Shown piece by piece: positions 3,550 through 64,000 of a stretch of DNA of 64,000 bases. The notes under the pieces are model-generated. The model was not told where the DNA came from, did no database searches, and saw only the letters and a list, made by a program, of their open reading frames with translations. Numbering within the stretch: the stretch's first letter is position 1; every line of letters starts with the position of its first letter. The position numbers and the translations under genes were made by a program. Source of the DNA: Eledone cirrhosa (Eukaryota); contig OZ024743.1 in NCBI GenBank assembly GCA_964016885.1, positions 68,882,001 to 68,946,000 of the forward strand, given 5' to 3'.

Positions 3550-3631
<82 letters not shown>

Positions 3632-3788
3632 TGGAATAAATGCTCTGAAATAGCGATATATATGTGAATATAGACATAGAATATTCGAAAATATTCTGTA
3701 TGTTTATAATAAACATTTTGAAGACCTAATCGCTATAGAATAGAATACGTCACGTATTACAATTAGATTCTCGATAAAAGCAAGGGAA

Positions 3789-3831
3789 GTAATCTACGCG
3801 TTTCATTCTCGTTAGAAATCATCAGGACTAC
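3789..3831 (-). ncRNA. Minimal type I hammerhead ribozyme (repeats at 4099, 4409, 4719, 5029, 5339)
   Basis: Reverse complement GTAGTC-CTGATGA-tTTCTaacgAGAAt-GAAA-CGCG-TA-GATTAC. Helix I is GTAGTC/GATTAC and helix III is the palindrome ACGCGT. Confidence 0.85.
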
Positions 3832-5854
3832 ATATCCAGTGCTTTTATCGAGAATGACACAGCTAGAGACTTATAGAATACTTAGCTGTGTACAGGAACT
3901 GGTTTGAAAGAGCGGTTGCCGGTCCGGCAGAAATTAGAAATTGGAATAAATGCTCTGAAATAGCGATATATATGTGAATATAGACATAGAATATTCGAAA
4001 ATATTCTGTATGTTTATAATAAACATTTTGAAGACCTAATCGCTATAGAATAGAATACGTCACGTATTACAATTAGATTCTCGATAAAAGCAAGGGAAGT
4101 AATCTACGCGTTTCATTCTCGTTAGAAATCATCAGGACTACATATCCAGTGCTTTTATCGAGAATGACACAGCTAGAGACTTATAGAATACTTAGCTGTG
4201 TACAGGAACTGGTTTGAAAGAGCGGTTGCCGGTCCGGCAGAAATTAGAAATTGGAATAAATGCTCTGAAATAGCGATATATATGTGAATATAGACATAGA
4301 ATATTCGAAAATATTCTGTATGTTTATAATAAACATTTTGAAGACCTAATCGCTATAGAATAGAATACGTCACGTATTACAATTAGATTCTCGATAAAAG
4401 CAAGGGAAGTAATCTACGCGTTTCATTCTCGTTAGAAATCATCAGGACTACATATCCAGTGCTTTTATCGAGAATGACACAGCTAGAGACTTATAGAATA
4501 CTTAGCTGTGTACAGGAACTGGTTTGAAAGAGCGGTTGCCGGTCCGGCAGAAATTAGAAATTGGAATAAATGCTCTGAAATAGCGATATATATGTGAATA
4601 TAGACATAGAATATTCGAAAATATTCTGTATGTTTATAATAAACATTTTGAAGACCTAATCGCTATAGAATAGAATACGTCACGTATTACAATTAGATTC
4701 TCGATAAAAGCAAGGGAAGTAATCTACGCGTTTCATTCTCGTTAGAAATCATCAGGACTACATATCCAGTGCTTTTATCGAGAATGACACAGCTAGAGAC
4801 TTATAGAATACTTAGCTGTGTACAGGAACTGGTTTGAAAGAGCGGTTGCCGGTCCGGCAGAAATTAGAAATTGGAATAAATGCTCTGAAATAGCGATATA
4901 TATGTGAATATAGACATAGAATATTCGAAAATATTCTGTATGTTTATAATAAACATTTTGAAGACCTAATCGCTATAGAATAGAATACGTCACGTATTAC
5001 AATTAGATTCTCGATAAAAGCAAGGGAAGTAATCTACGCGTTTCATTCTCGTTAGAAATCATCAGGACTACATATCCAGTGCTTTTATCGAGAATGACAC
5101 AGCTAGAGACTTATAGAATACTTAGCTGTGTACAGGAACTGGTTTGAAAGAGCGGTTGCCGGTCCGGCAGAAATTAGAAATTGGAATAAATGCTCTGAAA
5201 TAGCGATATATATGTGAATATAGACATAGAATATTCGAAAATATACTGTATGTTTATAATAAACATTTTGAAGACCTAATCGCTATAGAATAGAATACGT
5301 CACGTATTACAATTAGATTCTCGATAAAAGCAAGGGAAGTAATCTACGCGTTTCATTCTCGTTAGAAATCATCAGGACTACATATCCAGTGCTTTTATCG
5401 AGAATGACACAGCTAGAGACTTATAGAATACTTAGCTGTGTACAGGAACTGGTTTGAAAGAGCGGTTGCCGGTCCGGCAGAAATTAGAAATTGGAATAAA
5501 TGCTCTGAAATAGCGATATATATGTGAATATAGACATAGAATATTCGAAAATATTCTGTATGTTTATAATAAACATTTTGAAGACCTAATCGCTATAGAA
5601 TAGAATACGTCACGTATTACAATTAGATTCTCGATAAAAGCAAGGGAAGTAATCTACGCGTTTCATTCTCAAACATACAGAATATTTTCGAATATTCTAT
5701 GTCTATATTCACATATATATTGCTATTTCAGAGCATTTATTCCAATTTCTAATTTCTGCCGGACCGGCAACCGCTCTTTCAAACCAGTTCCTGTACACAG
5801 CTAAGTATTCTATAAGTCTCTAGCTGTGTCATTCTCGATAAAAGCACTGGATAT

Positions 5855-5897
5855 GTAGTCCTGATGATTTCTAACGAGAATGAAACGCGTAGATTAC
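5855..5897 (+). ncRNA. Minimal type I hammerhead ribozyme (repeats at 6165, 6475, 6785)
   Basis: GTAGTC CTGATGA TTTCTAACGAGAAT GAAA CGCG TA GATTAC, enclosed by the 15-bp inverted repeat ATTCTCGATAAAAGC/GCTTTTATCGAGAAT. Confidence 0.85.
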
Positions 5898-6947
5898 TTC
5901 CCTTGCTTTTATCGAGAATCTAATTGTAATACGTGACGTATTCTATTCTATAGCGATTAGGTCTTCAAAATGTTTATTATAAACATACAGAATATTTTCG
6001 AATATTCTATGTCTATATTCACATATATATCGCTATTTCAGAGCATTTATTCCAATTTCTAATTTCTGCCGGACCGGCAACCGCTCTTTCAAACCAGTTC
6101 CTGTACACAGCTAAGTATTCTATAAGTCTCTAGCTGTGTCATTCTCGATAAAAGCACTGGATATGTAGTCCTGATGATTTCTAACGAGAATGAAACGCGT
6201 AGATTACTTCCCTTGCTTTTATCGAGAATCTAATTGTAATACGTGACGTATTCTATTCTATAGCGATTAGGTCTTCAAAATGTTTATTATAAACATACAG
6301 AATATTTTCGAATATTCTATGTCTATATTCACATATATATCGCTATTTCAGAGCATTTATTCCAATTTCTAATTTCTGCCGGACCGGCAACCGCTCTTTC
6401 AAACCAGTTCCTGTACACAGCTAAGTATTCTATAAGTCTCTAGCTGTGTCATTCTCGATAAAAGCACTGGATATGTAGTCCTGATGATTTCTAACGAGAA
6501 TGAAACGCGTAGATTACTTCCCTTGCTTTTATCGAGAATCTAATTGTAATACGTGACGTATTCTATTCTATAGCGATTAGGTCTTCAAAATGTTTATTAT
6601 AAACATACAGAATATTTTCGAATATTCTATGTCTATATTCACATATATATCGCTATTTCAGAGCATTTATTCCAATTTCTAATTTCTGCCGGACCGGCAA
6701 CCGCTCTTTCAAACCAGTTCCTGTACACAGCTAAGTATTCTATAAGTCTCTAGCTGTGTCATTCTCGATAAAAGCACTGGATATGTAGTCCTGATGATTT
6801 CTAACGAGAATGAAACGCGTAGATTACTTCCCTTGCTTTTATCGAGAATCTAATTGTAATACGTGACGTATTCTATTCTATAGCGATTAGGTCTTCAAAA
6901 TGTTTATTATAAACATACAGAATATTTTCGAATATTCTATGTCTATA

Positions 6948-7016
<69 letters not shown>

Positions 7017-19373: not shown

Positions 19374-19924
19374 ATTAGGATTGGTGCACTTAAATAGCGA
19401 TGTATACATGAATGTATGCATAGTATATTTGGCAATATACCGTATGTTTAATTAAAAACATTTAGAAGACCATACGCTATCGGTTTTAAAGTAGTGACTA
19501 TGTCACTTACTTATTTTCGGCGAAAGAAGGGAGAGAAGCCAACAGTCAGTTTCACGCTGGTTGGCGATCATTAGAGCCAAGTACCCATGCTTCCGCCGAA
19601 ATATAGAGAAGCTAGATTCTTATAGAATTCCAGTATTAATCAGGAGCTGATTATACAGAGCGATTGCCAGTCCAGCAAAAATTAGGTATTAGGATTGGTG
19701 CTCTGGAATAGCGATGTATACATTAAAGTGTATATAGTATTTTTGGCAATATACCGTATGTTTAAATAAAAACATTTAGAAGACGTTACGCAATCGGTTT
19801 TAAAGTAGTGACTATGTCACTTACTTCTTTCCGGCGAATGAAGTAAGTAACATAGTCACTGCTTTAAAACCGATAGTCTTCTAAATGTTTTTAATTAAAC
19901 ATACGTTATATTGCCAAATATTAT

Positions 19925-19930
<6 letters not shown>
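19374..19930. mobile_element. Diverged relative of the 310-bp HHR monomer (~314 bp): 1.5 tandem units plus an inverted tail
   Basis: ATTAGGATTGGTGC at 19374 and 19688, inverted from ~19835. Degenerate HHR on the minus strand at ~19537-19578 (CTAATGA..GAAAC). Confidence 0.75.
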
Positions 19931-19988
<58 letters not shown>

Positions 19989-29359: not shown

Positions 29360-29398
29360 TAATAAAAATAATGAAACAGTTCCTTATATTAAAAAATT

Positions 29399-29534
29399 CA
29401 TCATTTTACGATCGTTTCTAGGATATATATGTGTGTGTTGGTATGTATATCATATAGATATATGTACAATTTTTACAAACCATCAGAGGGAATATACATA
29501 CCTACACATATATATGCTGTCTTCAGAAATAATG
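29399..29534 (-). ncRNA. Hammerhead ribozyme in the Penelope 3' pseudo-LTR
   Basis: Reverse complement CATTATTT-CTGAAGA-CAGCATATATATGTGT...ACACATATATATCCTA-GAAA-CGATCG-TA-AAATGATG. 8-bp helix I, palindromic helix III. Confidence 0.8.
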
Positions 29535-30306
29535 ATATTTGTTTATTGAAAAAAACAACAAAGATTTAATATAATAGGTCTGTTTGGGAACAGGTTTTGA
29601 ATTGACCAATAGAAAGGTAGTAAGTGGTCAAGATGGTAGAATAGTAGTAATGGAACTTTAATTTAGGTGTAGAGGAAGGCAGATTTCAGTTTTGAATGGA
29701 AAGAGTATAATGAATGAAAAGATTATTTTGGGGATGAAAATAGGTCAAGTCGGTAAAAGGTACACGAAAATTTGAAGTTATAAAAGAATAATGCTAATGT
29801 AAATATCTAAGGAGAATAACATTTTACGATAAATGTGTTAGTGAAAAATATCAATCTTATTTAAAATATAAGGAATTTACATCTATAAAAAGAAAATAAA
29901 TTAATTAAAGTGATAGGTATATTTATATTGATAAATGTATATCAATTCATATAGATATGATAAATAAGAATTAGATGTAATTGAAGAATGCTGTTAAAAA
30001 CGAAGGGAAAATAAAAAAATAATAATTATTATTATTTGGGGGGGGGGGGGGGTAAATTTATTAGTGAGAAATAACAAATTTATATAGATTATAAGGAATA
30101 TAGATTCATAACCAGAAATTAAAATAGTTTATATGTATACTTATCGGTATAAATTTTAGGAAAAGATTGCTGTAAAAGGGAAATAAAATTATGCAGTTCA
30201 TTAGTAGTAGAATATTAATTATAGGTTAACTAATTTAAAAAAAGTGTTATTATAATAATTTGTAAAGTGTATATTAATTAGGTTTATAATATTTAAAAGT
30301 TCTTCT

Positions 30307-31640
30307 CTATTTATGATTACATGATATAATTAATTCCTGTCGCTTATTTAATAGGATATCCTTAGATTTCATTATTTCAAAAGGTTCCTGGGAACACAAT
30401 CTACATTCATATCTATTATTCTGATAAGGGGTGGCCCTTTTGAGCACACTCCAGGTCAGGTTATAATCTATATTCCTTTTTCTATAATTATTAATTATTT
30501 CAGCTAAGGATGTTGTATTAGCTAATGTGGCATTTTTAAAACTGTGTTTGTGGGTATTAAATCTTACTTTAAATTGGTTAGAAGTAGCTCCTATATATGA
30601 ATAAGTTGAGTCCTTAGTGTTAATTTTACATTTATATACTATGTTATTAATAAGGCAATTTCCTTTTAATGGGCAATTTGCTTTGTTTCTACAGTTACAA
30701 CCTTTGGTGAATGCTGTATCAGAGGAGATAGTCAAATTAGGTGTGGAATTTTCACGACTTGTTGTATGTGAATGAGATGGTGGTTTGCTGTGGTTTATTT
30801 TAGTATTATGGTTAGTTTGATGTATTGGTGGAATATTCATGGGTTTTTTTTACATTTGTATGCATTATAGGCACTTATATTATGTTGTATATTGTTGGTT
30901 GTTGAGTAGGAGAATTTAACCGTTGATCTATTTAAAATTTGATGGTATTTATGGTTTGGCGGGAAGTTTTTCTCTGGGATAGTAAAAAATTTTTTAGGTA
31001 TATTATCTTTAATTTGTAGATTAAATGGAGCATTATACCAAGTAACTCGTCTATTACGGTTTCGATGTTGTTTATTATTTTTATAGGATGTATCCTGATG
31101 TTTATTAAGAGAATTAGTATTAGTGATTTTATTACACATATTTTTAGTTAGATCCATTGATTTAGGTGTTTTAGCCTGTTTATTAGAAATTTTGTTATTA
31201 ACATATATTGGAGTATTAGGAGGAATGGTTTTTTGAAAGTTACTATATTGTATATTAGAAGAATTAGAGAAATTAAGTTTTATGTTGGTATTTTTGGGTT
31301 TAGTGTGAGTGGCATTTAGGTGTGTATATTTCATTTGGTGTTTGTTGGTAATATTGGGTTGTATGTTTGTAGTGTTATTGGTACAAGGTATATATACTAA
31401 TTTGTTTTTGTGGCCGCTTCTAGCTAAAGCTTCGTTATAACAGGTCGCATTTTTATCAAATACATCCTGGTTAGACCAAAGGTTAGACATTTTGAGTGAG
31501 ATATTATATGCTAGGTTTTTAAGGATAGATTTAGGGTGATTAGATTGTGAGTGTATGTAATGTAAGTTTTGGTTAGGTTTATGGTAAGGTTGGTAGATAC
31601 CCGTAGATAAGTCTAATGTTATATCAAGGAAATTAACTAC
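30307..31640 (-). pseudogene. Penelope RT C-terminus plus GIY-YIG endonuclease (frameshift near 30838)
   Basis: CNCR..CPLKGNCL..NIVY..YSYIGAT..FKVRFNTH..CRLC..E..LLNKRQELI.SC.H motifs in ORFs 30837-31490 and 30307-30840. Confidence 0.88.
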
Positions 31641-31842
31641 TTTACTTGTGTTTTAAAATGTAACATCGAGACTATAATAGTCTTTGTGGAAAGTTCTAAT
31701 CAGTTTTTTATTTTTTTATATATATATATATTGTTATACATATTGTTTTAATAATATTGCCAGAAATGATAACAGAACACACTCACTGTTTGGTTGGTTT
31801 TCACTTCTGTATCTTTTAGATCTCCATAGTTAATTTATTTGG

Positions 31843-37802: not shown

Positions 37803-37857
37803 ACTGCCTGAAGAGGTCACAGCCAATGATGGTTGTCACCGAAATATATATAGCAGT
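37803..37857 (+). ncRNA. Intact-looking type I hammerhead ribozyme
   Basis: ACTGC-CTGAAGA-GGTcACAGCCAatgaTGGTTGTcACC-GAAA-TATATA-TA-GCAGT. Confidence 0.82.
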
Positions 37858-49101: not shown

Positions 49102-49330
49102 GTATAAAATCAATACAATATAATTACCTCATTACCAGAGGTTTCCCGAATGAGGCGAATACGAAATACATTTTGCTCTGATACTTACATATTTCGTATT
49201 CGCCTCATTCAGGAAACCTCTGGTAATGAGGAAATTATATTGTATTGATTGTATACATTAAATTTTGCTCTGATACTTACATAGAGCACTCTTCATTTCT
49301 ATGACCTTTTCTGTTTCCAACTGAAATTTC
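49100..49330. repeat. (TA)n-flanked short fold-back
   Basis: 49100-49168 is inverted at 49190-49258. ATTTTGCTCTGATACTTACAT is directly repeated. Confidence 0.8.
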
Positions 49331-49334
49331 AATA

Positions 49335-49392
<58 letters not shown>

Positions 49393-49395
<3 letters not shown>

Positions 49396-50045
49396 TTAGA
49401 AAATATTTTTTGGAGGAGGAGATATATGAGTCAAGATACTTGTAATCTTCCACCTGATTAAGGGTGGTACCATTAAGGGTTCTGATGGGGTAGTTTGGGC
49501 TGTTTGCGCATCTGTTCACACACTCAGTCTTGGATTCGTTGAGGTACAGTCCAACACAGTTGGACGCTTGCTCTAATGACTTCAAAAGACTCTCAGCATT
49601 TTCCAGTGACCGACTGATCAATGCGATGTCGTCAGCAAAGTCAGTGTCGGTCAAGTATTTTGCTGGGTAGCGTGAGCTTCTCCTAGGTTGTAGTTGGTAT
49701 CCCCTATCCTGAATCCTATCCACAGACATGCGCAAAACATAATCCACAACAATGATAAATAGATAGATAAGGAGCAAGGGTATCGCCCTGTAAAATTCCA
49801 GCGAGGATTGAGAAAGGTGGTGTTTCCCCATCTGGGGTCAGGACAGTTGATTTGGTATCTGTATACATTACACGTATGGCCGCGATGATTTTATCAGGAA
49901 TCCCATAGAGTTGTAGAATTTCAAACATTCCCGACCTGTCAACTGAGTCGAAGGCTTTTGAAATATCAACAAAGATGAGTGCAAGGTCTAGATTGCGGTT
50001 TTGGGACTCCTCTATAAGTCGGCGAAGGCAGAGAATCTGGTCAGC
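49393..50045 (-). pseudogene. RTE-clade LINE reverse transcriptase (inverted 5' segment)
   Basis: FVDISKAFDSVDR, GILQGDTLAPYL, DTDFADDIAL, GLYLNESKT, VEDYKYLDSYI. One frameshift. Confidence 0.92.
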
Positions 50046-50535
50046 GTGCAATGACATGCACGCCATATGGACATCTCAACTTACCAACAAGCTAAAACTG
50101 GAAATATTCCAAGCAACCATTAAGCACATATTACTTTATGGATCCGAAACTTGGACACTAACATCACAACTTGAGAGGAGATTTGATGGCACATATACCC
50201 GCCTCTTAATAAGAGTGCAAAACCTATCCTGGAAACGACATCCCACCTTGTCTAAAATCTATGGCAAACTCCCTCGAGCCTCTGCCCTTCTAAAATCCCG
50301 GAGAGCTCAATTTGCTGGCCACTGTCACAGTGCCAGCAATGAAATCATATGCGCTCTCTTGCTCTGGAACCCTGACTCCAGCCTGACTAGGAGTAGAAAG
50401 CTGTCATTCCCTGACGTTATCTCTAGGGATACGGGAGTCAGCAGACAGGACCTGGGGGCAGCGATGGGGGACAGGGGATTCTGGGGCATGAGAGTGAGAT
50501 CCATCATCTCCACAGTAGTCGACGAGTGATGATGA

Positions 50536-55722: not shown

Positions 55723-55785
<63 letters not shown>

Positions 55786-55789
55786 TATA

Positions 55790-56172
55790 TTAGGATTGGT
55801 GCTCTGAAATAGCGATGTATACATGAATGTATGTATAGTATATTTTATTTGGTTATACATCGTATGGTTAATTAAACACATTTAGAAGACCATATGCTAT
55901 CAGTTTTAAAGTAGTGACTATGTCACTTCTTTTCGGTGAAAGAAGGGAGAGAAGCAGACAGTCTGTTTCACGCTGGTTGGCTTTCATCATAGCCACGTAC
56001 TCCTCTGCCTTCGCCGAAAATTATAGAAGCTGGGTTCTTGTAGAATTCCAGTAATAATATGAGTTGATTATACAGAGCGATTGCCGGTCCAGCAACAATT
56101 AGGTATTAGGATTGGTACTCTGAAATAGCTATAGTATATTTGGCAATATACCGTATGTTTAATTAAAAACAT
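55790..56172. mobile_element. Relative of the 310-bp HHR monomer (1.2 units)
   Basis: Same body as 19374. Minus-strand HHR GGCT-ATGATGA-..-GAAA-CAGACTG-TC at ~55953-55995. Confidence 0.75.
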
Positions 56173-56188
56173 TATATATATATATATA

Positions 56189-58996: not shown

Positions 58997-59580
58997 CATT
59001 ATATATATAAGTATGTATACGTACATACATATATGCATACAGACGTACAGTAGTATGTATATATATATATGCATAAATGCACACATATATATATATATGT
59101 GTACGTATAGATTTACCGAACATTTATTATAATGCTCGGTCTGTTTGTAAACAAACATGCCCAAGTAAGCCGTACAGTGTTTAGCAACCATCGATGCCCT
59201 TTTGTTCAACACTGACAAAGGAACGATGTACTAGTTTCAAGCTTATTAACTATCGTCAGCATCGTATACCTTCCTGCCAGATGATTGAACGTCTGAAAGT
59301 ATATACTTTCCTTATGCATATTAACCGCTGAGCAGCCTAATTGGCATATCGAGTGAGTTAATCGGCCGGGCGCACCGAAAACGATTAATGGAAAAAATGA
59401 AACGAAATTTCATTTCTTACTCTTAGTACGGCTGTTACTTAAATATAAGTATGTATACGCACATAAATATATGTATACAGACGTACAGTAGTATGTATAT
59501 ATATATACATAGATGCACACATATATATGTACGTATGGGTTTACTGAAAATTTATTGTAATGCTCGGTTTGTTTGTAAAC
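58997..59580 (-). mobile_element. ~437-bp partial tandem, a distant inverted relative of the 468-bp HHR monomer
   Basis: 59005-59150 is repeated at 59443-59580. Shared AAACGAAATT and GCAG.CTAAT..GCATA blocks. Confidence 0.7.
59223..59265 (-). ncRNA. Intact-looking minimal hammerhead ribozyme
   Basis: Reverse complement ACGATG-CTGACGA-tAGTTaataAGCTt-GAAA-CTAG-TA-CATCGT. Confidence 0.83.
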
Positions 59581-59980
59581 TCGGTATGAGTTTCAGAAGA
59601 TCACGTGAAGTAGGAAAGCAGCGATTATTTGCATAAATTTAATCTGTTATTTTAATACATATTTGCTGTATGGTTTTATATATTTTTATATATATATTAT
59701 CCTTGTCGAGCCCTGATTTTAGTCTTCACATTTATTATTATTACTATATATATATATAGTAATAATAATAAATGTGAAGACTAAAATCAGGGCTCGACTA
59801 GGTTAATATATATATATAAATATATAAAACCATACAGCAAATATTTATTAAAATAACAAACTAAAGTTTAAGCAAAGAATCGCTGCTTTCCCCTTATCGC
59901 GCTCTTCTGAAACTCATACCGAGTTTGAGAGGATCACGTTAAAGGTGAAAGCAACTATTCTTTGCCTAAACTTTAATCTG

Positions 59981-59982: not shown

Positions 59983-60019
<37 letters not shown>

Positions 60020-60025
<6 letters not shown>

Positions 60026-61012
60026 TTATTGCTCTGAAATAGCTATATATATATGAATGTATATATAGTGTATTTTGCAATACACTGTATGCTTAATAAA
60101 AAGAATTTTGAAGACATTATGCTATTGTTTTAGAGTAGTGACAGACTCACTTACTTTAATTTCAGCAAACAGGGGGAGATAAAAATGACAAGACCTTGTT
60201 TCTGCATTTATTGATGCTTATCAAAGCCAACTACTCCTGCCGTTTGCTGAGAACCTGGATGTTTTGGTTCTTATAGAAGTCTAGTAAATAATCAGGAACT
60301 GATTATACAGAGCGGTTGCCGGTCAAGCAAAAATTAAAAATTAGAATTGTTGCTCTGAAATAGCTATGTATATATGAATGTATATATAGTGTATTTTGCA
60401 ATACATTGTATGCTTAATAAAAAGCATTTTGAAGACCTTATGCTTTTGTTTTAGAGTAGTGACAGACTCACTTACTTTAATTTCACCAAGCAATCAGTTC
60501 TTGATTATTTACTAGAATTCTATAAGAACTAAAACATCCAGGTTCTCAGCAAACGGCAGGAGTAGTTGGCTTTGATAAGCATCAATAAATGCAGAATCAG
60601 CTTTATCTCCCCGTGTTTGCTGAAATTAAAGTAAGGTCTTCAAAATGCTTTTTATTAAGCATACATTGTATTGCAAAATACACTATATATACATTCATAT
60701 ATATATAGCTATTTCAGAGCAACAATTCTAATTTTTAATTTCTGCTTGACCGGCAACCGCTCTGTATAATCAGTTACTGATTATTTATTAGAATTCTATA
60801 TGAACCAAAACATCAAGGTTCTCAGCAAACAGGAGTAGTAGCTGGCTTTGATAAGCATCAATGAATGCAGAAACAAGGCCTTGTCAGCTTTATCTCCCCC
60901 TGTTTGCTGAAATTAAAGTAAGTGAGTCTGTCACTACTTTAAAACAATAGCATAAGGTCTTCAAAATGCTTTTTATTAAGCATACAGTGTATGCAAAATA
61001 GACTATATATAC
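60020..61012. mobile_element. Third relative of the 310-bp HHR monomer: tandem plus inverted arms
   Basis: ATTAGAATT.TTGCTCTGAAATAGC at 60020 and 60340, inverted from ~60492. HHR-like GGCT-TTGATAA-GCATcaatgaATGCa-GAAA-CAAGGCCTTG-TC-AGCT at 60844-60889. Confidence 0.8.
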
Positions 61013-61097
<85 letters not shown>

Positions 61098-61670
61098 CAT
61101 ACTATAGAGTAAAGCATGTCCAGATAATTATTTGATAACATATATACATCCTCTCTATGTATGTGTAAATATTTATATTCAATAATCTCCCATAAAGTTG
61201 AGATACAAATTTGGGCGATATTGGGCTGCGCTTTCTAGCAACCAACCATCTCGCCGTAAGCAACCAATCACACCCTTCCTGACTTGACCACTGCCACGTC
61301 ACAGTTCTCAACCATTTTGAAATCGTTTTTTGCGGGGGCCACTTCGGAAAATAATATGTCCTAGCGAGTTTATCCCTTGAAGAGCTCTAGACTCGAGTAT
61401 GAACGTTAAATAAGGTATCTCATAAGTGAGCGAAACCCAAGGGTCGGGATTTGGTGATTTAATCCTGGTATGTATATAAGCATTTCTAACATTAATTTTT
61501 ACCTAATTATGTATGGTTGACCGTATATTTCATTAATTTCAACGTGCTGTTGAAATATTGGGTAAATATTCGATAGTGGTTGCACGCGAAGACTCCACAA
61601 TAGCCTTTTATTCTTATAGCCTTGTTTAATTGATTTTTTGTGTGGTTAATTATGCTGATTGGGAGTAGAG

Positions 61671-61761
<91 letters not shown>

Positions 61762-61900
61762 TATCAAATAATTCTCTGGACATGCTCTACTCTATAGTAT
61801 TTCGCTCTGATTAATTTATTAATTCTCCATTGAGCCACATCGTGAAAAGTTGCCAAAACACATATATACCTGTGACTTTGTTTAATTGGTGTATGTGTAA

Positions 61901-61968
<68 letters not shown>

Positions 61969-62148
61969 TTTAAAGGTATGTCAAATTTATTTATAAAACT
62001 GTTTATATATTGTATTTTGTCTAAAGAGGGCATACCATATTTTTAATATTTTTAATATGATATCCCTGAAATATATATAATGAAATAAATATGGTTTTAT
62101 AAATTTAGTTTCCATTTGTTTAATATCGTATATATATATATATATATA

Positions 62149-62689
<541 letters not shown>

Positions 62690-62702
62690 CAAATATTCCT
62701 TG

Positions 62703-62756
<54 letters not shown>

Positions 62757-62764
62757 AAATATTC

Positions 62765-64000
62765 CTCTAAAAACCGGTTTGTCTGTGTGTTTACATACAG
62801 AATAGCTGGGCCGCTCACTGTAAAGCAACCAGTGAAAGACTTGGTTACACCTACATATGTATACGTGTGTGTATTCATATACACACTAGTATTTCAGTAT
62901 GCATATGTAGATGTACATTTTTAACTTAATTGTTTAAGCGTCAGTCATACAAAAGTGAGTTACAAACGAAACGAAATTTAATTTCGTTTCGTTATTTGTT
63001 TTTATCGTCTCCGCTGAACCGGTGCGTACTCACACTCTATGCAAATTAGTCTGCCCACTACTAATTTTCATAGAAAAAGCATATAACGATATGTGCTTTT
63101 ACAATTCTCCAGAAAGGCCGGTAGATAGGTAAATATTGCTGATGAGTTGTAACAACAACGAAACTAGTTCAATATTCCTTGACTGGCTTTCTGGAGAATA
63201 GGGGGAAGGTGTTCCCCCGAAAAACCAGTATGACTCTAAAAACCGGTTTGTCTGTGTGTTTACATACAGAATAGCTGGGCCGCTCACTGTAAAGCGACCA
63301 GTGAAAGACTTGGTACACCTACATATGTATACGTGTGTGTATTCATATACACACTAGTATTTCAGTATGCATATGTAGATGTACATTTTTAACTTAATTG
63401 TTTAAGCGTCAGTCATACAAAAGTGAGTTACAAACGAAACGAAATTTAATTTCGTTTCGTTATTTGTTTTTATCGTCTCCGCTGAACCGGTGCGTACTCA
63501 CACTCTATGCAAATTAGTCTGCCCACTACTAATTTTCATAGAAAAAGCATATAACGATATGTGCTTTTACAATTCTCCAGAAAGGCCGGTAGATAGGTAA
63601 ATATTGCTGATGAGTTGTAACAACAACGAAACTAGTTCAATAGTCCTTGTCTGGCTTTCTGGAGAATAGGGGGAAGGCGTTCCCCCGAAAAACCAGTATG
63701 ACTCTAAAAACCGGTTTGTCTGAGTGTTTACATACAGAATAGCTGGGCCGCTCACAGTAAAGCGACCAGTGAAAGACTTGGTACACCTACATATGTATAC
63801 GTGTGTGTATTCATATACACACTAGTATTTCAGTATGCATATGTAGATGTACATTTTTAACTTAATTGTTTAAGCGTCAGTCATACAAAAGTGAGTTACA
63901 AACGAAACGAAATTTAATTTCGTTTCGTTATTTGTTTTTATCGTATCCGCTGAACCGGTGCGTACTCACACTCTATGCAAATTAGTCTGCCCACTACTAA
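62765..64000 (+). repeat. 468-bp near-identical tandem array (at least 2.6 units, runs off window); retrozyme-like
   Basis: CTCTAAAAACCGGTTTGTCTG at 62765, ~63234 and ~63702. Confidence 0.95.
63132..63176 (+). ncRNA. Canonical minimal type I hammerhead ribozyme (second copy 63600-63644)
   Basis: AATATTG-CTGATGA-GTTGtaacaaCAAC-GAAA-CTAG-TT-CAATATT. 7-bp helix I, 4-bp helix II, palindromic ACTAGT helix III. Confidence 0.9.

Follow-up and report, generated by a model that had tools for sequence, protein, structure and literature searches.

A non-coding tandem array with type I hammerhead motifs as a probable non-LTR retrozyme insertion of Penelope type

Results

The window analyzed here, one continuous stretch of DNA of 64 kb, ends within a tandem array of 468-bp units, which we interpret, with a probability of roughly 0.8, as a single insertion from an abundant family of non-LTR retrozymes, here regarded as non-autonomous retroelements of Penelope type. 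Every non-LTR retrozyme feature that is testable was observed in the array: tandem units, a hammerhead in two consecutive units, non-coding sequence, a self-paired monomer and many copies. Assignment to the retrozyme type is very probable, and movement by a Penelope-like enzyme is only slightly less so. That the mover belongs to the Hydra clade is somewhat better than an even guess, and we give a similarly cautious edge to measurable self-cleavage of the dimer, which is predicted from folding. The original prediction of a retrozyme-like array with a real type I hammerhead is upheld by covariation, fold stability and family abundance. The anatomy of the insertion in turn supports retro-insertion, because a fixed 3' end at (AT)n is accompanied by a short inverted copy at the 5' side. 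The coordinates of the relevant features are collected in Table 1.

Table 1. Features of the array, its insertion site and related elements within the 64-kb window
Feature	Position	Strand	Basis and remarks
Unit 1, 469 bp	62765..63233	+	Repeat detection, unit alignment
Unit 2, 468 bp	63234..63701	+	Repeat detection, unit alignment
Unit 3, at least 299 bp; window edge precedes its hammerhead	63702..64000	+	Repeat detection, unit alignment
Type I hammerhead, copy 1	63132..63176	+	Core from 63139; U17 at 63169; motif scan, Rfam alignment
Type I hammerhead, copy 2	63600..63644	+	Core from 63607; U17 at 63637; motif scan, Rfam
Long closing stem around hammerhead, 63105-63122 with 63182-63198	63105..63198	+	Folding z -6.2; family variants keep pairs
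Short G/C hairpin behind hammerhead	63200..63217	+	Folding; two pairs change on both sides in family
13-bp hairpin	62965..62993	+	12 nt upstream of family 3' end; candidate reverse-transcriptase signal (putative)
Defined 3' end of family insertions	63003..63005	+	(AT)n after 63005 in family contigs
13-nt inverted copy of 62993-63005, adjoining TA run	62683..62695	-	Exact reverse complement
11-nt match to 63171-63181 (just behind predicted cut)	62692..62702	+	Overlaps inverted arm by 4 nt
Second, shorter junction copy	62753..62766	.	9-nt inverted arm and 9-nt match to 63171-63179
(TA)n microsatellite holding left junction; presumed target	62580..62753	.	Sequence, repeat detection
Relative of 468 family, about 1.2 units, intact hammerhead	58999-59532	-	C3 at 59259, A17 at 59229
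310-bp array, identical units, inverted at 5670/5671	3628-6960		Both ends in (TA)n
5'-truncated, frameshifted Hydra-type Penelope-like element	29360-31720	-	RT thumb, CxCx5C linker, GIY-YIG; (TA)n at 3' end

Organization of the array

Repeat detection in the 64-kb window places the array at 62765-64000, with a period of 468, 2.6 copies and 98% matches, in agreement with the near-identical 468-bp tandem units first proposed (see Table 1 for the unit lengths). The array continues past position 64000, which is the window edge, and the start of the insertion lies upstream of 62765, at about 62683 or 62753. Pairwise differences among the three units number 5, 5 and 3, so that the units are about 99% alike, and none of these differences is shared in a nested manner. 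With units about 1% apart and no nested differences, the units look like copies of equal age; this near-equal divergence fits a circle or a homogeneous parent array as template equally well. The three units also hold many common differences from the family majority.

The GC content of the 468 unit is 38%. The longest ATG frame in a trimer of the unit encodes 20 amino acids, and an 84-aa stop-to-stop frame on the minus strand of the unit has no Pfam match, which agrees with the absence of coding capacity claimed earlier. The hairpin that was likewise claimed recurs once per unit, at 62965-62993, 63433-63461 and 63901-63929. A blastn comparison of the unit with the whole window found no element parts outside 62580-64000. 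There is no tRNA gene in the 64-kb window and no match to a sigma-70-type promoter, a model that says nothing for an animal sequence. Pattern scans for the element gave no match in metagenome contigs or viral contigs.

Hammerhead motif and its predicted folding

The conserved hammerhead core (CUGANGA, GAAA, UH), located at a three-way junction, is intact in both copies. The expectation of a hammerhead in each unit therefore holds for units 1 and 2 and not for unit 3, which ends at the window edge before the motif. In copy 1, stem I has 7 bp, stem II has 5 bp and helix III has 1 bp followed by a palindromic CUAG loop; the predicted cut lies at 63169/63170, after U17, and the motif is consistent with the cut after 63169 that had been predicted from the start. 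In copy 2 a G at 63643 reduces stem I to five pairs and a mismatch, so the 3' strand of stem I that was quoted for every copy applies to copy 1 and not to copy 2. Helix III consists of A15.1-U16.1, capped by the CUAG palindrome; alone it would form 1-2 pairs, and in a double hammerhead it is predicted to form 6 pairs, with a cross-pair probability of about 0.48. The cut triplet, GUU, satisfies the NUH rule. According to the available portion of PMC3138052, GUU is among the cleavable NUH sites, and GUC and GUA are the fast natural triplets. The literature accessible to our search contained no evident case of a natural U17 hammerhead. Describing this hammerhead as textbook was an overstatement, given a helix III of 1-2 pairs and a U at N17.

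The same motif scan found no motif in 60 simulated 64-kb windows. The Rfam model HH9 matches both copies, with E-values of 4e-6 and 1e-5 and scores of 33.8-35 bits, under its gathering score of 52; at the gathering level Rfam gave no match anywhere in the window. The core agrees in full with the HH9 consensus, and the internal loop and A-rich loop 2 align to it in part. With this score, the hammerhead is not a member of HH9 proper. Many microRNA matches at the Rfam E-value level were discarded as hairpin and TA artefacts. Loose matches to the hammerhead pattern at 37808 and 41864 have low-complexity stems and are probably due to chance.

The whole monomer folds with a z-score of -12, and none of 100 shuffles was as stable; the energy of the circle is -164.5 for the plus strand and -147.0 for the minus strand. 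An internal loop lies above stem I, inside the closing stem 63105..63198. A misfold of the lone motif is predicted to be more stable than the active fold by 7.6 kcal/mol. When the natural dimer (63105-63668) is folded as a double hammerhead, the predicted energy is -203.7 kcal/mol, compared with -186.7 kcal/mol for two single hammerheads and -205.5 kcal/mol for the unconstrained minimum. The double hammerhead is thus favored over two singles by 17 kcal/mol in the model, a gap that is due in part to cross-pairing of the direct repeats and that comes from energies which leave out tertiary contacts. On these predictions the motif should work mainly as a dimer, and a single-motif assay could therefore be falsely negative. 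With U17 the palindrome grows to 8 nt, and as a result this base is predicted to pair with A14 in the partner copy in the unconstrained dimer minimum; such pairing may slow cleavage.

Related arrays within the window

About 3.5 kb from the array lies a relative of the 468 family (58999-59532) that is 60% identical over 585 columns, a level reached by none of 100 shuffles. Its hammerhead is found at the matching place and has the same CUAG loop. The hammerhead of this relative, at 59259, has no Rfam match.

The second array, with 310-bp units, is built in a similar way on a larger scale. Its inverted arm consists of 1.3 kb of tandem units, its hammerhead strands point outward, and its two ends differ by a tail of 28-38 nt. 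In each unit there is a type I hammerhead whose stem II has a U-U pair at its base; the loop is a palindromic CGCG and N17 is A. The minimum-energy fold of the dimer is predicted to be a double hammerhead. With its identical units, GUA triplet and double hammerhead as minimum-energy fold, the 310-bp array is at least as good a candidate for an active ribozyme, and the first place given to the 468-bp array in this respect is not borne out. The two families had also been described as dissimilar; this is correct at the level of blastn and fails for the local alignment over the hammerhead and closing stem, which scores above all 100 of 100 shuffles.

Older relatives of the 310-bp family, about 70-80% similar, occupy 19374-19947, 55781-56173 and 60014-61000. 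All three start at the same end against (TA)n and two are inverted; their hammerheads are degenerate or were not found.

Family abundance and covariation

One unit was compared with the contigs of four public sequencing runs. In run X1, from organism A, 1024 contigs align to the unit. In most bins their depths add up to roughly 2 to 7 x 10^5, which is a depth and not a copy number. The 468 family is very abundant. Tandem joints, at which the sequence goes back 468, occur in all four runs.

Among 40 of the 74 variants, 16 are unpaired and 24 fall at paired positions; the pair is kept in 20 of these 24, against 12.8 expected, and broken in 4, as counted on a structure derived from the same sequences. 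None of the same 40 variants falls on the 12 invariant core positions. Among the variants listed, four pairs change on both sides, including 63147/63158 in stem II. In run X6 both stem II changes, and also C17, are supplied by one contig (depth 30.8). A second comparison took in the motif of the 310-bp array, that of the relative at 58999-59532 and the two copies, four motifs in all. Of 12 pairs, 8 differ on both sides, compared with 0 of 500 shuffles and with slid controls of 0-1. The covariation supports, without proving, selection on the hammerhead fold; it falls short of proof because four sequences are few and the structure was taken from them.

One position departs from the family in copy 1 alone, which has an A at 63182 that restores pairing with a minority T at 63122. 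At 63182 every contig of X1 has T instead, and the A could be a private compensation, a hairpin repair or a sequencing error.

Run X21 is a RAD library, and its allele shares are not family frequencies. Its read ends at 62978, 62980, 63047, 63063 and 63399 were considered as element ends or as a 42-nt tail and were rejected; we take them for restriction ends, since each lies at an AATT site.

Twelve organisms besides A contain 22-39% of the sampled words of the unit (63170-63700). In organisms B and C there are pieces about 97% identical, with tandem joints and at much lower depth; a copy in organism B is 97% identical over 205 nt. Such near-identical copies in other organisms may reflect horizontal spread, with close kinship as the simpler reading.

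Ends of the insertion

The (AT)n follows directly after 63005 in at least six contigs of X1 and at least one of X6. Relative to this 3' end, the hairpin stops 12 nt upstream and the cut site is 164 nt downstream. The inverted arm at the left of the array stops at the same place, and its 11-nt core is unique in the window apart from the array. Contig ends and inverted arm are two independent views, and together they point to one 3' end. It had been suggested that a TA flank and an inversion be sought in the next window; both are already visible at the left end of the array. An inverted 5'-truncated copy is given as a hallmark of Penelope-like elements (PLEs) in the accessible text of PMC8557442, and internal initiation on both target strands has been shown in vitro for an anole PLE (PMC11167929). 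The left end, by its sequence, looks Penelope-made.

The left junction can also be compared with the cut site. The 11-nt match behind the inverted arm begins just past the predicted cut, and the second junction copy (62753-62766) enters unit 1 through a 2-nt overlap, with about 55 nt of the unit skipped. In a test that was post hoc, concerned one locus and used unit 1 as reference, 0.07% of 55,669 7-mers of the window yield an 11-nt match of this kind at any place in the unit, and 0.10% yield a match within 7 nt behind the cut (a chance of about 0.001); unit 2, with its G variant, lacks the match. The 310-bp array has no junction at its cut site in either of its two arms, which join 16 nt upstream and 90 nt downstream of it, and RNA ends of the anole PLE were not seen at the cut site (PMC11167929). 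We offer only as a tentative, rather doubtful reading that the left junction is a genomic footprint of in vivo ribozyme cleavage, left by Hydra-clade PLE copying. On this view the enzyme would begin within the RNA behind the hairpin, proceed through several units and halt where the hammerhead had left a 5' end. Either a linear multimer, cut in part, or a circle that had been opened again would serve as template. U17, by allowing the cut site to pair with A14 in the dimer, would have been selected as a brake on cleavage, so that templates of several units persist. If true, the anatomy of the insertion would connect a retrozyme with a named PLE clade, and the pure rolling-circle model would have to be amended.

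The identity of N17 raises a different possibility, namely that the ribozyme is now weak or silent, that uncut multimeric transcripts are copied by the PLE enzyme, and that the hammerhead is an inherited pLTR feature for which cutting is not required any more. U17 accounts for about 98% of X1 depth; C or A occurs in the remaining 2% and in the older relative. The extended palindrome with its U17-A14 pair in the dimer fold points the same way. The anole PLE hammerhead is moreover dispensable for insertion in vitro, where catalytic mutants are no hindrance, and the lack of RNA ends at its cut site fits as well (PMC11167929). We nevertheless find this possibility unlikely, because the core is untouched in the 40 listed variants (of 74), stem II shows a compensatory change, GUU is listed as cleavable in the available part of PMC3138052, and the 5' junction matches the cut site.

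The insertion ends also bear on a purely DNA-level origin, in which a satellite or minisatellite was born once from a PLE terminal repeat and grew by unequal exchange, with no RNA step here. Local amplification from a pLTR has been proposed by Li et al. (bioRxiv 2026.07.22.740005, in the accessible text), and the differences from the family majority that are common to the three units would suit this origin, as homogenization can also give them. However, several contigs, from two organisms, share the same 3' end against (AT)n, the inverted arm stops at the same 3' end, and the window holds many short dispersed TA-flanked elements of like build, which indicates repeated retro-insertion. Selection on RNA pairing also needs an RNA step. 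We consider a satellite of this origin improbable.

The retro-insertion that we prefer has some outward features in common with a non-autonomous TA-targeting DNA element (MITE- or Helitron-like), of which the arm would be a terminal inverted repeat and the hammerhead a passenger. DNA transposons commonly target TA and carry short terminal inverted repeats; the hairpin 12 nt from the 3' end presumably resembles a Helitron end signal. An element of this type is nonetheless very improbable, since the inverted arm of the 310-bp array is 1.3 kb of tandem units and the ends of that array differ by 28-38 nt, as in PLEs, which have a 30-40 bp tail at one end. The covariation of the hammerhead also speaks against a passenger.

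Candidate Penelope-like partner and other elements in the window

The window contains a single PLE, decayed and broken, at 29.4-31.7 kb. Besides a YIG motif it has the features that define the Hydra clade, namely the CxCx5C linker and the CxxC and CxH motifs. Its best database match is P0005 (E 8e-27), and 2 of 221 candidates passed 1e-10; P0005 carries RWK, DKT and the RT active-site DD. Near 29410-29490 this PLE has a degenerate hammerhead-like motif. A comparison of the unit with the 3' region of the PLE gave a score of 35, and 56 of 100 shuffles scored as high. The unit thus has no detectable similarity to this 3' region, and a Hydra-clade partner is only a candidate. According to the accessible text of PMC8557442, canonical hammerheads and insertion into (TA)n are the rule in almost all Hydra families. 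Naiad and Neptune elements also favor microsatellites, according to the available portion of the preprint by Craig et al.

Comparison of the unit with three other TA-flanked elements found no similarity. A lone hammerhead-like motif at 61372-61450 (+), with U3, a long stem II, a 4-bp helix III and C17, lies within an insert (61106-61790) that is flanked by TA and has short inverted ends. The segments 59635-59868 and 62143-62547 are fold-back elements, TA-flanked or TA-centered, the former with a degenerate hammerhead-like core in both arms. A frameshifted fragment of a LINE-type reverse transcriptase at 49280-50075 (-), whose match to Pfam RVT_1 (E 1e-6) is below the cut-off, reaches as far as a TA run.

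Discussion

Proposed mechanism

The features described above can be arranged into a putative sequence of events. Read-through transcription would yield a multimeric plus-strand RNA, in which neighboring hammerheads would pair via the helix III palindrome and cut slowly after U17. The products would be 468-nt monomers and partly cut multimers. A host ligase could then close the monomers into circles, in which the lone hammerhead would be unstable; RtcB is an in vitro precedent for the axolotl and mussel (PMC7229834, as far as its accessible text goes). The reverse transcriptase and GIY-YIG endonuclease of a TA-targeting PLE, most likely of the Hydra clade, would nick (TA)n, and copying would begin at an internal position of the RNA, 12 nt past the hairpin, rather than at the site of cleavage. 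Copying of a circle or a multimer would give the tandem array, and a second priming on the other target strand would give the 13-nt inverted arm with its 4-nt overlap. The accessible text of bioRxiv 2026.07.22.740005 reports cleavage in vitro for one of nine predicted Xenopus retrozyme dimers, and base rates therefore counsel caution with regard to cleavage.

Which enzyme moves animal retrozymes, and whether a circle or a multimer is the template, are questions on which this family bears. It combines inverted arms and a TA target with a start site fixed at 164 nt from the cut, and it has a candidate partner clade; both ends of many copies could test the mechanism without bench work. The U17 majority, with C17 and A17 relatives, forms a natural series for asking whether a slower ribozyme favors spread.

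Comparison with known systems

Animal retrozymes are already known and their link to PLEs has been proposed; the array is a further member of that kind. Like the metazoan non-LTR retrozymes described in the accessible text of PMC7229834, it has tandem non-coding units below 50% GC with one type I hammerhead each, a strongly self-paired monomer, a high copy number and PLEs in the same genome. Unlike them, it has a unit of 468 nt, compared with 150-450 in that text. RNA circles and cleavage have been shown for metazoan retrozymes there, whereas both are putative for the array. Further differences from those retrozymes, as that text describes them, are its inverted arm, its targeting of TA and a 3' end that is internal and fixed. 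Our search of the accessible literature found no description of TA targeting, inverted arms or cut-site junctions in retrozymes, although such cases may be contained in the supplementary material of PMC7229834 and of the 2026 preprint. The array also agrees with the definition of Li, Clavereau and Pollet as given in the available text of bioRxiv 2026.07.22.740005, since it has two consecutive units with a complete type I hammerhead and a length within 51-972 bp.

The closest parallels in the hammerhead itself are HHR_Amex1 of the axolotl and satellite 2 of the newt, which share a helix III of one pair with a palindromic tetraloop and for which dimer cleavage is expected (PMC7229834 and PMC4209133, in their accessible portions). 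According to the same portions, HHR_Amex1 cleaves poorly alone and well as a dimer. Unlike these hammerheads as described there, the motif has U at N17, and stems I and II of 7 and 5 bp in place of the canonical 6 and 4.

In its insertion anatomy the array resembles Hydra-clade and other EN+ PLEs as portrayed in the available text of PMC8557442, with (TA)n targets, a tandem and inverted 5'-truncated structure, and a sense-strand hammerhead; unlike these PLEs, the 468 element has no ORF. The PLE link drawn by Li et al., in the available text of their preprint, is based on co-occurrence and pLTR similarity, mainly in vertebrates, whereas the link suggested here comes from the anatomy of the insertion.
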